From positions 1-64,000 of IMG/VR virus record IMGVR_UViG_3300046373_000069: a DNA stretch of 64,000 nt. One strand, given 5' to 3'. Numbering within the stretch: position 1 is the first letter of the stretch; every line of letters begins with the position of its first letter. Of this stretch, positions 1-22,594 are shown piece by piece. The position numbers were made by a program, and so were the translations under genes. Source of the DNA: a virus. The notes under the pieces were generated by a model. It worked only from the letters and a program-made list of their open reading frames with translations. It was not told the DNA's origin and made no database searches.

Positions 1-215
1 AATTTGAACGACTCTCCCTCTTCTTCAATATCGTGCAAGCCCAGCTGAAATACAAGCTATAAAAATATATTCTTTGCCGCATCTTTCTGTGCGTGCTCGG
101 GTTGTGTTCCTGTAATGTTGCTGTATACTTTGGGAAGTCACACATCGGACAATGTGTCAAACTCTATTTCAAAATATTACAGGGAGCTCCCCTGTGAACA
201 CCACATGGGGGTTGT

Positions 216-11684: not shown

Positions 11685-13887
11685 AATGTCAAAAGAATAC
11701 ATTCACAGGACGACCCTTGCAGCAATCCACGCATGGGCCAACAGCGACACTTACGACAGATATGCTTGCTGGATTTCCACCCAGAAAAAAGGTGGGAAGT
11801 GGTGGGCAGCACAAGACACCATCTAGCAAGCCTACTACAAATAAACAACACAAGAATTCCGTTAAGCGCTAAGAAAAGGCTTGACGGTATTCGCACGCCT
11901 GTTGTATAGTTAGTTCATCCGAGCAAATCTGCTCAAAACACTAACGTACAGGAGCACCCTATGCAAGACGCCCTTTCCACTTTCCTCGAAGTTTCCCTTT
12001 ACGTCATCTCCGGTGCCTTCTGCATCTTCGCAGCTACCCACACGCTACCAATGGGCCTCACGGCTTTCTCTGCTGGCTCCCTCCTCACTTGCTTCTCTTG
12101 TGCGGCATGGAGCATTTACAAGCTCCTCGTGCGGGGCGTCTGATGTCATTCTCTCTAGTCAACGAACTCTTCCTATACCTGACATGGGTTTGTGTAGGAT
12201 TTCTTCTGTGCTTACTACTTCAGCGCAACAAAGATAATGACGACGATAGCTAAAATAAGCTTGCACTAGATAGCGAGTGTGCTAAGATGTACTCACTAAC
12301 ACAGCACAAGGAACACCATGCCAGACAGCAAAGACAAGCTCCCGCTCATAGACGATATTGAAAGCGTCCAAAGGGACACAGAGGAAGCGCTGAAGGGGCT
12401 GCGGGTTGTGCTGGCAATCATTGTTGTTTGCTTCATCGGGGCAGTGTGCGGACTTATTTATTTTACTTAGGAGCTTGACATGACATCGTTTGAATTCGGC
12501 GTAGGGACGTATCCAACGTTGGCAATGCGGAGTAGAGCGCACAGGGAGGGCGTCTACGCGGGTAAGCATAGCGGGAAGTATGATAGGGTCCACGAACCAA
12601 GGGCAATTGCTTTCGAATACCCTTTCGGTATGCAAGTGAAGGCCCTCAACAGGAAGCAGCGCAAACAGCTTAAACTGAGCGAAGGAGAAATGTGGTGAAA
12701 TACAATTTCAAGTTTAAGATTGGCGACGTTGTGAAGCACAAGGTGGGAGACGAGTGCATATACATTCAGCAAACCGCATTCAACTCCCACACAGAGCAAG
12801 CACTGTATATAGTGTACACAAACACTGGCTGTGACTACTTCATGGCAGAGTCTTTTGAGAAGTTTTATGAGGTGAAGAAATGAACTACATCCTAATTTTT
12901 GTATTCCTCTGGAGCAGCGGACATCCGGAGTCTACGTCTCAAAGCGTAAAGTTTCACTCTTTGAAGGCGTGCCAAGCGGCTGCTCTGGAAATTCGGAAGC
13001 AGGCTGCAAAAGAAGCCCACAAACTACCAATTCTAGTTTGTGCAGCGGAGCATCTATGACCCTCACCCCAGAGCAAGCTAGTAACCTCCTCAGCGCCCTG
13101 CAAAACCTCTGCATCGCATTTGCAGACATGTGTGATCGCACGGGGTATAATGCTGGGGCGTATTATACGTACAGAGCAGCGCAAAAAGTGATTGAAGAGA
13201 CTTTAGGAGAAACACAATGAATAACTCTAAAATTTCCGCACTGGAAGCTTCCCAGATTATGATTCTTGCCGAAGATTGGGCGAATGCCAAAGCTAAACAC
13301 GCACAAAACCCTAAATCGTATTACTACGAGATAGCGCTACTGGCAGAGCAAGCCCTGCGAGACTTCGTGAACGAGCTTGCTGACGCTAAATAACCCTTGT
13401 AAACCCTCCTCCACAATGTTATTCTGAACACATCAACAGGAGAACAAAATGCTGCCTATATTTATCTGGTTAGTTTGCTTCACCATCGTCTTCTCAATCC
13501 TGCTCGTCTACGTCTGCATGGCTGAAGTGAAGCCTCCGAAGATGCCCGAAGAGATGCGTATGCGTCTACGTGAATGGGGAGAGGCAGAATGAGCGCCAAC
13601 ACTATTGCATACCTTTCCATCTTGGCCCTAGTATTGTTCGTATTTGCGGTGGGGGTAATAGCAAGACGGAATGACAGAATTGCAGAACTAACTGACGAGG
13701 ATCTAGAGCAAGCTATTTTTCGGGAAAGCTTGCAAGGGAACTTGGACAGTGTGTATAGTAGGGAGCGGCAGATGCGGCAGGGGAAGGGTTGTTAACCAAA
13801 ATAGAGCTTGCATTATCTTTGTTATTGTGGCACACTGAATTCGTTGAAACAAAACACAGCCCGATAGGGCAAACACAGGAGAATATC

Positions 13888-18808: not shown

Positions 18809-18995
18809 ACTACAACGAGCTAAAGAGTGCTGTAGAGCAAGCTAGGCAAGCGGCTGTTGAGGCTAGGGCAGCGTATCAGCTAGCACCAACTAGAGAAGGC
18901 CTTAATACAGCACATACTAAGTGGTTTACGTATGAGTCGCTGGATAGTGACCTGCTGAGGATGGATGTGGACATTTGGTTGGAGGGGGTGTTGTG

Positions 18996-19430
18996 ATGAG
19001 GGATACACGGATTCAAGATCAAGCCTATATGCTGGCTGCGAGGCATCACAAGGGCCAACTATACGGGACAGAGCCATACACTGAACATCTGGCGGATGTC
19101 GTTCAAAGCCTTTGGATGAAGCACGGGGACAGTATCAACCCTGTGCTAGTCGCTACGGCATGGCTGCATGATGTGCTGGAGGATACTGAGTGTACTTGGG
19201 AGGAAATTGTAGCTGCGTGTGGAGATGAAGTAGCACGGGCAGTTGTGTGTCTGACAAAGCACCCCCAGCAAGCTAAAGAATGGTATATCGCAAGGATTAA
19301 AGCCTGCCCAATTGCCCTAGAGGTGAAGATTCATGACAGTTTATGCAACCTCCGTGCTAGTGTCATGAGCGGGGAGAGGGGGAGGGTACGGAAGTATTCG
19401 CAGCAGTTGATGCTGTTGGTAGAGGGGTGA
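18996..19430 (+). CDS. HD-domain hydrolase, RelA/SpoT-Mesh1 (small alarmone hydrolase) type
   Basis: H.GQ..G.EPY..H, LHDVLEDT, VK..D...N motifs. Confidence 0.8.
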   Translation: MRDTRIQDQAYMLAARHHKGQLYGTEPYTEHLADVVQSLWMKHGDSINPVLVATAWLHDVLEDTECTWEEIVAACGDEVARAVVCLTKHPQQAKEWYIARIKACPIALEVKIHDSLCNLRASVMSGERGRVRKYSQQLMLLVEG

Positions 19431-19465
19431 GAGGGATGCCCGTAAGGGGTTAGATAGCAGCACAC

Positions 19466-19493
19466 AAAAGCCCGCTCTAGGCGGGCTTTTCTT
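19466..19493. terminator. Rho-independent terminator (bidirectional type)
   Basis: AAAAGCCCGC-TCTAG-GCGGGCTTTT. Confidence 0.85.
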
Positions 19494-19667
19494 CGTCACT
19501 ATGCGTACCCCTAGGCAGCAGCTACAAGGCCCGTAGAGAGCCTATACAGGGCTGCTAGAGGGCATGCTGTACATCGTGCTATGTGTGGCCCCCCCTTCGG
19601 GGTGAGGGTGGCTGTGCAGCTACATGTAGGCAATGTGTTCTACCATGTGCTATGGGGCAGCTACTAC

Positions 19668-19714
19668 CCACTATATGTAGTGTTACTATGTGGCACGCCT
19701 ACTAGATGTAGGGC
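19668..19714. promoter_or_regulatory. tandem NrdR-box-like sites
   Basis: CCACTATATGTAGTGT (19668) and CTACTAGATGTAGGGC (19699), 31-bp offset. Confidence 0.65.
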
Positions 19715-19716
19715 AA

Positions 19717-19750
19717 TGTTAGTGAGTACTAACGTTAGCGGTTACTAACA
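19717..19750. promoter_or_regulatory. two adjacent SlmA-binding-site (SBS)-like palindromes
   Basis: GTGAGTACTAAC (11/12 to GTGAGTACTCAC) with GTTA flank, then GTTAGCGGTTACTAAC. Confidence 0.55.
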
Positions 19751-19834
19751 TAGGGTTAAGCAAACAATCACGCCTTCTTCTTCGCATACGAAGTAGTTTC
19801 CTTTACAACAACACCCCTCCCAGACACCTCGAAA

Positions 19835-19891
19835 TGTTGCTAACAAGCATTGCGTTGCAGCAGGGCAACATCTAGTTGCTACGAAGCAACA
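19835..19891. repeat. three GTTGC-N6-GCA(AC) palindromic operators
   Basis: TGTTGC-TAACAA-GCATTG, GTTGC-AGCAGG-GCAACA, GTTGC-TACGAA-GCAACA. Confidence 0.65.
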
Positions 19892-20395
19892 TCAGAGGGC
19901 ACATTTTCGCCTTGACTTCCTAGTGCGTGCTGGGCGGTGGGTGATAGGGTGCCCGATGGGGCGTAGCTGGCATGGATGGACAGGGAGATGGAGACGCTTA
20001 ATCCTTTAGAATCAATGACATGCACCTACTCAGGCAGGCTCGACATTCACGCATCGCATACCTGAAAATGGACCCTTAGGGAACCAAAAGGGGATGGATT
20101 AGAGGCTCCAGAAGGCGTCGAAAGGGCGTGCTGGTAGGTGCACAAGGGACGCCCTCTGATCGTCGCTCCTACGTCATATTTGACCCGCTCTAGTGCTATG
20201 GGCGACCCCGTATGGGCCATGTTTAACCACGTTTGTAAGCCTGTAACATTCTCAAAAGTGCCTATTTGACCCATCTTTTCGTCCACTTTTAGCCTTGTTT
20301 GAGATACTTTTTCATATGATTTCGCACAGCAAAACTACGAAGTGGGCTATCCAAAAATAATTTTTAGAAAATTTCAAGTTTCCTGAAAAGGGCCA

Positions 20396-20424
20396 TTGAC
20401 AGATGCGTTTATAGCCGCTACAAT
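20396..20424 (+). promoter_or_regulatory. sigma70 promoter of recombinase gene
   Basis: TTGACA-17-TACAAT. Confidence 0.8.
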
Positions 20425-20469
20425 GACTGCATCAACTAGCAACTTTGCACACACAAACAGGAGCTTGAA

Positions 20470-21114
20470 ATGACTACTACATATTTTTATACGAGGGTGT
20501 CCCTTGAAGAGCAGACGACAGAGAACCAGAAGCTTGCTGCTAAGGCCGCTGGCCTGACGATTGACGAGTGCTTCACTGACCACGGTGTGTCAGGTGGAGT
20601 GAAGGCTATGGAGCGTCCTGAGTTCGCCCGCATGGCTGCTCTTGTGAAAGCCGGTGACATCCTCGCAGTGAATAGCGTTGATCGCATCGGACGAGACACT
20701 GTGGACGTTCTCTCTACTGTGGAAATGTTCCAAGCTAAGGGTGTCAAGGTGTGTGTTCTCGCCTATGGCAATCTTGATCTTACTAGCGATATGGGTAAGA
20801 TGATATTGACAATCGCAGCAGGCTTCGCAGCCCTAGAGAGGTCGAATCTCCGCACTCGCACAAAGCAAGGCATGGCGCGTACTAAAGCGCAAGGCACGAA
20901 GCTTGGCAGGCCACTCAAGATTACTCCAGACACGCTAGCAGATATTTTGAAGGACAGGGATGCAGGTGTACCGCTGGAAGGGTTGTCTCAAAAATATAAA
21001 ATCCCCCGCAATACCATCCACAAAAATGTTGCTAAGTGGGCTGGTAAAGTGGAGGACTATCGTGTAGAGTACAAAGCTCGTGAAGTGCAGTATGCAGCGT
21101 CTAAACTCAACTAA
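20470..21114 (+). CDS. small serine recombinase (resolvase/invertase family)
   Basis: YTRVS catalytic motif, D.G.SG, RP.F, GD.L.V..VDRIGR, ER...R.RT..G, GRP + C-terminal HTH. Confidence 0.95.
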   Translation: MTTTYFYTRVSLEEQTTENQKLAAKAAGLTIDECFTDHGVSGGVKAMERPEFARMAALVKAGDILAVNSVDRIGRDTVDVLSTVEMFQAKGVKVCVLAYGNLDLTSDMGKMILTIAAGFAALERSNLRTRTKQGMARTKAQGTKLGRPLKITPDTLADILKDRDAGVPLEGLSQKYKIPRNTIHKNVAKWAGKVEDYRVEYKAREVQYAASKLN

Positions 21115-22045: not shown

Positions 22046-22594
22046 TTAGACAGCTTCATAATCCTCCCCCGTACACATCTTCCAAACTTCCTCCATAGTG
22101 TGCTCCCTATCCTTGCCATCCTCGTGGCGCATGAGAAATCCCTTCGGCAGCGTCATCACTGTTGGGATGCCAAGCTTCCAGCCTGCGTAGCCTCCTGCTA
22201 GGTCTGTACCTGTTTGGCCCCCTGAGATGATTTTCTTGATGGGGTAGTAAGCGTGCACGATTTGGAGGATATTGTACACACGTCTGTTCAATCGATCCTG
22301 CTCGTACCCATGTTTAGACCCCGTATAAATTCCGTTACCTGCTACATTGACAGTGAGCGCCGCTGTATCGCGCATACGAAAGTAGAGCCGCCTAGCGCTA
22401 TCAACCCATCTCTCTTCAATTGGTAACTCAAGAAAATGCTCCTCCCCACGCTTCGTAGCAGCTTTCTTCGTCAGCTTCTCTCCAGCCGTTGTGTAGTCTA
22501 CGGCAATGGCAATTGTCAGATCAGCCTCTGTAGCATTCGCCCATGTGCGAGGGGCGTAGCTGGAGGAGGTGTGTTCACGGATTAGAAGTGTCAT
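22046..22594 (-). CDS. SLOG-superfamily protein (putative MoCo-carrier/YpsA-like)
   Basis: KIISGGQTGTD.AG, RT..N...AD.T, VNVAGN motifs. Confidence 0.75.
   Translation of the reverse strand: MTLLIREHTSSSYAPRTWANATEADLTIAIAVDYTTAGEKLTKKAATKRGEEHFLELPIEERWVDSARRLYFRMRDTAALTVNVAGNGIYTGSKHGYEQDRLNRRVYNILQIVHAYYPIKKIISGGQTGTDLAGGYAGWKLGIPTVMTLPKGFLMRHEDGKDREHTMEEVWKMCTGEDYEAV

Follow-up and report, generated by a model that had tools for sequence, protein, structure and literature searches.

Organization of the non-coding gap

The window analyzed here comprises the initial 64,000 nucleotides of a virus genome of 93,609 bp from IMG/VR (record IMGVR_UViG_3300046373_000069, here G000). The large terminase of this virus is 40% identical to the terminases of Pseudomonas PAK_P1-like myoviruses. 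A direct repeat of 127 bp is found at the two ends of the record (window positions 1-127 and G000 positions 93483-93609). Since 127 bp is a common overlap size for assembler k-mers, the record is probably a circular assembly, and the apparent terminal repeat is probably the k-mer overlap of a circular path that was opened at an arbitrary start point.

A run of small plus-strand genes ends with an HD-domain phosphohydrolase gene (18975-19430, plus strand; phrog_990, E = 3e-41; PF13328), which is the last gene upstream of a non-coding gap of about 1 kb (19431-20469). The early plus-strand block is closed by a two-way terminator hairpin (19466-19490), a perfect 10-bp inverted repeat AAAAGCCCGC/GCGGGCTTTT accompanied by runs of A and of T. 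At the far end of the gap, a promoter of the form TTGACA-17-TACAAT (20396-20424, plus strand; 11/12 in the promoter scan) serves a small serine recombinase gene (20470-21114, plus strand; PF00239, E = 2e-35), beyond which a block of minus-strand genes begins. The coding strand thus switches a little downstream of the gap, and the cumulative GC skew reaches its maximum in the 18-20 kb bin, at the gap itself. Besides the hairpin, the gap holds the boxes that are the subject of this analysis, several palindromes and a short conserved island.

Three related contigs (L005, L008 and L009) were found by using a cpYpsA-like gene (22046-22594) as an anchor; searches with the recombinase or the HD protein returned no close relatives. 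All three have the terminator, a long gap and the recombinase in the same order as the window, with the recombinase homologue at the same position. No reading frame is conserved among these gaps. A tblastx comparison of the window's gap with those of the relatives gives no consistent frame, and L005 and L008 are equally similar to each other in all frames; a coding explanation for the gap was rejected. The Rfam scan places no family in the gap, and the only match of the Rfam and tRNA scans is a tRNA-Thr at 27.3 kb. A megablast search of cultured phages with the 18.5-21.5 kb interval yields no match. The window (20340-20400) and L009 (1890-1935) also have in common AT-rich elements, CCAAAAATAATTTTTAGAAAATTT and CCTGAAAAGG, upstream of the recombinase promoter (24 nt, 92% identity, E = 2e-5), and these are candidate recombinase sites.

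A tandem pair of NrdR-type boxes

An NrdR site is composed of two partially palindromic 16-bp boxes separated by a linker of 15-16 bp, with highly conserved positions C4, A6, A8, T9, T11 and G13 in each box (PMC13584703). The initial annotation had recognized such tandem boxes in the gap, together with a weaker third copy, and its positions and offsets of 31 and 51 bp are borne out. Box 1, CCACTATATGTAGTGT (19668-19683), agrees with the 16-bp consensus at 14/16 positions, and box 2, CTACTAGATGTAGGGC (19699-19714), at 10/16. They start 31 bp apart, so that the linker TACTATGTGGCACGC (19684-19698) has 15 bp and falls within the predominant spacer length; its sequence is not kept in the relatives. 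The third box, CAGCTACATGTAGGCA (19617-19632), begins 51 bp upstream of box 1, from which it is separated by a 35-bp linker, and it has poor flanks (8/16). No test of a spacing like this one was found in the NrdR literature that we searched. Each of the three boxes has the full set of six conserved positions, with a C-G distance of 8 bp.

Box 1 is identical at 14 of 16 positions to box 1 of the Escherichia coli nrdAB operon, CCCCTATATATAGTGT. The E. coli nrdAB boxes are bound by NrdR experimentally, with box 1 verified by MST (PMC13584703). The core of box 2, ACTAGATGTAG, is identical to that of the second box (box B) in L008. The pair therefore has the two 16-bp boxes, the six key positions and the 15-bp linker of published NrdR sites, and the description of the boxes as NrdR-type with canonical phasing stands. 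The remaining published feature, a location in the promoter region of an RNR operon, is absent. The sigma-70 scan, which covers the overlapping promoter that the initial annotation had asked about, finds none at or beside the boxes in the window, and no gene starts directly downstream of them.

Boxes with the strict core number 21 in this genome, as expected by chance (Markov shuffles give 20.9), but five of the 21 cluster between 19617 and 19878. A strict pair with a spacing of 30-33 bp arises in only 1.3% of 300 shuffled genomes. On a relaxed scale the pair scores 23/28 and is the sole pair with a score of at least 20 in the 93.6 kb, while the best score among 60 shuffles is 21. Two further strict-core boxes in the cluster, CCTCGAAATGTTGCTA at 19827 and GGGCAACATCTAGTTG at 19863 (together 19827-19878), overlap GTTGC-N6-GCAAC palindromes. 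The latter has CAACATCTAGT in common with the synthetic consensus box of PMC13584703. The linker between these two is 20 bp, a length at which NrdR does not bind well (PMC12051234). At 12800-12815, within a small open reading frame (12692-12883), there is also a box with two mismatches to the consensus, GCACTGTATATAGTGT, which is probably due to chance because position 6 is a G and no second box accompanies it. When the pair was searched by blastn against cultured phages and E. coli genomes, E. coli gave no match, and among the phages one lone identical box turned up, by chance, in Enterococcus phage Aramis.

Two abutting GTTAGT-N4-ACTAAC palindromes (19718-19749) start 3 bp after the pair and are the only two copies in the 93.6-kb genome. 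The SlmA site is 12 bp long; the half-sites here are 4 bp apart, and we rejected an SlmA reading on this basis. Farther to the right lies an island, TTAAGC..ATCnCGCCnTTCTTCTT (19756-19783), that is conserved in alignments of all four related gaps and contains no conserved ORF. A conserved small RNA or ORF to the right of the boxes was also considered and discarded, since only this short island is conserved and the gaps have no common frame. No DnaA box TTATCCACA occurs in the window's gap with one mismatch or fewer, and a DnaA-box cluster is accordingly missing there.

The phage encodes a class I RNR outside the window, with nrdA (66319-68181) and nrdB (ending at 69043) both on the minus strand and spanning 66.3-69.0 kb, about 47 kb from the boxes. 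The observation that no nrd gene lies nearby is correct for the window, and the suggested check of the remaining sequence for an RNR has a positive outcome. The phage genome has no NrdD, no ATP-cone anywhere, and neither NrdR nor an NrdR zinc ribbon; NrdR boxes are likewise absent near nrdBA. Without an ATP-cone, the phage enzyme would escape dATP feedback. Because nrdAB has no boxes of its own and is far from the pair, the boxes are orphans in a phage that is self-sufficient for RNR.

Similar pairs in relatives and in other phages

Two of the three relatives, both diverged from the window, keep a pair. When the window's gap is compared with that of L008, the box pair is the sole significant DNA similarity (43 nt, 79% identity, E = 9e-5). 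The L008 pair consists of ACACTATATGTAGTGC and CCACTAGATGTAGTAG and the L005 pair of ACACTACAGGTAGTGG and ACACTGTATGTAGTAG, each with a 14-bp linker and a score of 25/28. Linkers of this length are within the 14-17 bp range bound by the four NrdRs tested in PMC12051234, which also bind spacers of 24-27 bp. The first box of L005 has 12 contiguous bases in common with box 2 of E. coli nrdAB, including its unusual AG center.

In both of these relatives, a perfect DnaA box TGTGGATAA lies 14 bp after the pair and begins an array (L005:8520-8700, minus strand; L008:4215-4365). The L005 gap has nine perfect DnaA boxes, six of them in tandem with an 11-bp period and three more besides, and the L008 gap has about seven. 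L009 has four (2330-2420) and no pair in the portion of the gap that lies on its contig. The DnaA-box array of the relatives could be an origin or an array that titrates DnaA.

The three phages with a pair served to define a core pattern (ACTANANGTAG, N19-22, ACTNNATGTAG), which in a scan of IMG/VR matches 106 contigs, or 92 distinct sequences. Part of these raw matches must be background, since a control with the reversed pattern still yields 43 contigs, and some are Ser/Thr-rich coding repeats. When a fit is defined as agreement with the NrdR logo (A1 C2, T14 G15 K16) at six or more of the ten positions left free by the pattern, 56 of 92 distinct pairs fit versus one of 30 distinct control sequences. 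Among the matches listed in a wider scan, the most frequent linker of well-flanked pairs is 16 bp. The loci that bear the pairs range from 28 to 65% GC, which argues for a near-universal host factor as the binder.

Fifty of the box-bearing records were examined for gene content. A class I or II RNR is encoded in three of them, and an NrdR zinc ribbon in none. If a protein binds these pairs as NrdR does, it would be a host protein, because NrdR, its zinc ribbon and the ATP-cone are missing from the phage and also from the 50 records. A serine recombinase (PF00239) is present in two of the 50 and in none of the seven complete ones. About 33 of the 50 have a recognizable TerL, and among the 19 contigs shorter than 10 kb the number is 15. 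Many pairs are located at terS, TerL or portal genes, although the TerL-linked contigs perhaps represent ten independent lineages, many of them coming from few families. One group, the L027-type phages, has no cultured relatives (best TerL match 27-40%).

The placement of the pair differs among these families. In the HK97-like families, the packaging operon has its first ATG 4-8 nt after the end of box 2. We rejected the idea that contig ends are physical genome ends in these families, since the distance from the end to the pair varies and longer contigs read through. In another family the pair is flanked by TerL and portal and its linker includes TTGAC, and in several families a TTGAC(A/T) -35 box is contained within the linker. 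As far as the sequences can tell, a pair at a -35 box or at the start of the packaging operon is a case of classical cis repression. In five T7-like contigs (L066, L064, L085, L088 and L100) the pair is instead inside the terminal repeat, where there is no promoter. This is a direct repeat of 190-222 bp, with the pair just upstream of a conserved TCTCTGTGTCCCTATCTGT. In L066 (1-450), a tandem array comes after the pair, with about 11 copies of a 21-bp unit, GGAACCACTGAGTATCATTRA.

Other elements accompany the pair in some lineages. In 10 other viral loci, too, GTTAGT-N4-ACTAAC is found no more than 300 bp from an NrdR-type pair; such neighbors are seen in at least three other phage lineages (L027, L043, L052, L063, L096, L099 and L120), where a CCCCTCCCCC run is often present as well. 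Two contigs (L080 and L094) have a perfect chromosomal-type parS, TGTTCCACGTGAAACA, and two DnaA boxes about 190 bp from the pair, upstream of TerL, so that a further site for a host DNA-binding protein occurs in this kind of region. An unrelated AT-rich provirus (G004, L020; 14944-16003) has a pair whose boxes are 14 bp apart, with a small serine recombinase about 600 bp farther downstream.

Proposed function of the pair and comparison with known systems

We consider it probable that NrdR binds the pair. NrdR does not bind a single box, heterologous NrdRs bind one another's boxes, and the protein is present in 77% of bacterial genomes (PMC13584703). Given the conservation of the pair and its occurrence in phages whose hosts differ greatly, the most likely binder is a near-universal host protein. 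A binder other than NrdR, such as the small terminase of the phage, a replication initiator or another host factor, would require the resemblance to NrdR boxes to be convergent. Packaging proteins act at terS, TerL and portal genes and in T7-like terminal repeats, and similar pairs do cluster there, an association that could point to a packaging-related binder instead. The GTTAGT-N4-ACTAAC palindromes, which have no known binder, also accompany the pair in several lineages. However, the pairs span unrelated terminase families (PF03354 and PF03237) and portal families in addition to the wide range of GC content, so a single phage-specific binder is unlikely. The fit of the flanks, the six key positions and the 16-bp spacing mode among the matches listed to the NrdR logo goes beyond that of a mere palindrome, and the cross-binding of heterologous NrdRs leads one to expect a universal motif. 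We give a different binder perhaps one chance in several. The gap is full of unrelated palindromes, and boxes do turn up by chance, as in the ORF at 12800 and in phage Aramis. Yet coincidence is a very improbable source of a pair that is so rare in shuffled genomes, that is the only gap segment to align significantly with L008, and that L005 has at the same place. Equally slight is the chance that the three palindromes are res-type subsites of the adjacent recombinase. The res site of Tn3/gamma-delta has a three-subsite layout, which the 51- and 31-bp spacings resemble, a resolvase/invertase gene lies downstream in the window and in all three relatives, and the provirus G004 has a small recombinase near its pair. 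Against this, the boxes are 756 bp upstream of the recombinase gene, which has a separate promoter, L009 has the recombinase and no pair, and the two rarely occur together among the 50 records. We rejected the res reading because the palindromes are not at the recombinase promoter and the co-occurrence is lacking.

If NrdR does bind, its role could be exerted in trans or in cis. The initial annotation had proposed the former: amplifying phage DNA would soak up host NrdR, derepress the host nrd operons and raise dNTP levels without any phage protein. Several observations are in keeping with such a decoy. No gene or promoter is evident beside the window's pair, the phage nrdAB genes have no boxes, and T7-like phages hold the pair in a terminal repeat without a promoter. 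The other box-bearing records mostly have no class I or II RNR (47 of 50) and would hence depend on the host enzyme, and the DnaA-box arrays at the same place in the relatives could likewise titrate a host protein. As originally stated, though, the proposal is not supported. This phage makes its own class I RNR, which weakens the decoy idea here. There is only one well-spaced pair per genome, and in all three carriers it abuts a neighboring element, the DnaA-box array in L005 and L008, an arrangement that a decoy has no need of. In other phages it either overlaps a -35 box or reaches into the ribosome-binding region before the first packaging gene, where it stops a few bases short of the start codon. 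A purely trans-acting decoy thus seems unlikely. Titration would nevertheless follow from binding, and its importance may be greater in the many carriers without an RNR of their own (47 of 50 records).

The explanation that we favor, though it falls a little short of an even chance, is that the pair is an NrdR-type operator used in cis as a sensor of dATP and ATP that acts on a local transaction. A cis role is preferred because the pair abuts the next element in all three carriers and because it has classical operator placement in other phages. A host NrdR tetramer loaded with dATP and ATP would bind both boxes across the 15-bp linker and kink the DNA, as NrdR is known to do sharply (PMC12051234). 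The site would be kept in a gene-free control region that is probably origin-like or a genome junction, and through it the phage would sense the dATP/ATP state of its host in cis. NrdR would occupy the site while dATP is available and leave it when the pool falls, and its departure would switch a local DNA transaction, which might be transcription across the gap, origin firing or the processing of concatemers. Which of these is affected, and in which direction, we can only infer, as we do NrdR binding and its effect. On this view, the amplified phage DNA would titrate NrdR as a by-product. Several facts count against a cis operator in this phage: there is no sigma-70-like promoter or gene start at the boxes, the flanks of box 2 are weak (10/16), L009 has no pair in the part of the gap on its contig, and the 14-bp linker of the relatives is suboptimal for E. 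coli NrdR, whose KD is 169 nM at this length versus 82-91 nM (PMC12051234).

A broader proposal, which we advance more tentatively, is that orphan NrdR operators constitute a device common among phages that has gone undescribed until now. By way of the dATP/ATP sensor of the host, they may time late expression, packaging or replication to the dNTP pool, and they would also derepress host RNR by mass action on NrdR when phage DNA is amplified. The device would be found in phages of many host phyla that mostly lack an RNR, with the pair at the packaging operon, in a terminal repeat or in an origin-like region. The window's pair would then be one instance, as part of a platform on which host DNA-binding proteins have their sites.

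If host NrdR binds these pairs, then phages have a direct read-out of the dATP/ATP pool, a resource that limits their replication. This would be a previously unrecognized class of dependency on host factors, with examples in dozens of uncultured phages, and the NrdR regulon would extend past the nrd genes. The literature that we searched treats NrdR as an RNR-specific repressor, does not include it among the host factors used by phages and makes no link between NrdR boxes and phage DNA. One review mentions an nrdR transposon mutant among phage-resistant E. coli, which is a lead rather than support. The pair is a ready test substrate for groups that have purified NrdRs and MST assays.

The pair most closely resembles the bacterial nrd operators, such as those of E. 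coli nrdAB, nrdHIEF and nrdDG and of Streptomyces coelicolor nrdAB and nrdRJ. It has the same 16-bp boxes, six conserved positions and 15-bp linker, and its boxes are nearly identical to those of E. coli nrdAB. Unlike these operators, it does not precede an nrd gene and is located in a gene-free gap without a recognizable promoter, where its neighbors are DnaA-box arrays (in the relatives) or GTTAGT-N4-ACTAAC palindromes (in the window).

Phages are known to use the sites of host transcription factors for local control, with LexA, DnaA, NtcA and PhoB as examples. The pair is similar in being a predicted site for a host regulator on phage DNA, and in other phages it lies across a -35 box or the beginning of the packaging operon. 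It differs in that the signal sensed would be the dATP/ATP pool. The datA locus of E. coli, which titrates DnaA, is a further parallel. There too the binding sites have no regulated gene, and an effect of the pair would scale with copy number as it does for a titration locus; the relatives have four to nine perfect DnaA boxes at this very place. Unlike datA, each phage genome has a single well-spaced NrdR-type pair, and an effect in trans is hypothetical in the phage. Finally, IHF is a host bending protein that serves as an architectural factor at lambda cosB and at oriC. NrdR also kinks DNA, and the pairs have DnaA-box arrays or terminase genes as neighbors or are contained in T7-like terminal repeats. 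This likeness is purely an analogy, in which NrdR would hypothetically aid the assembly of origin or terminase complexes.
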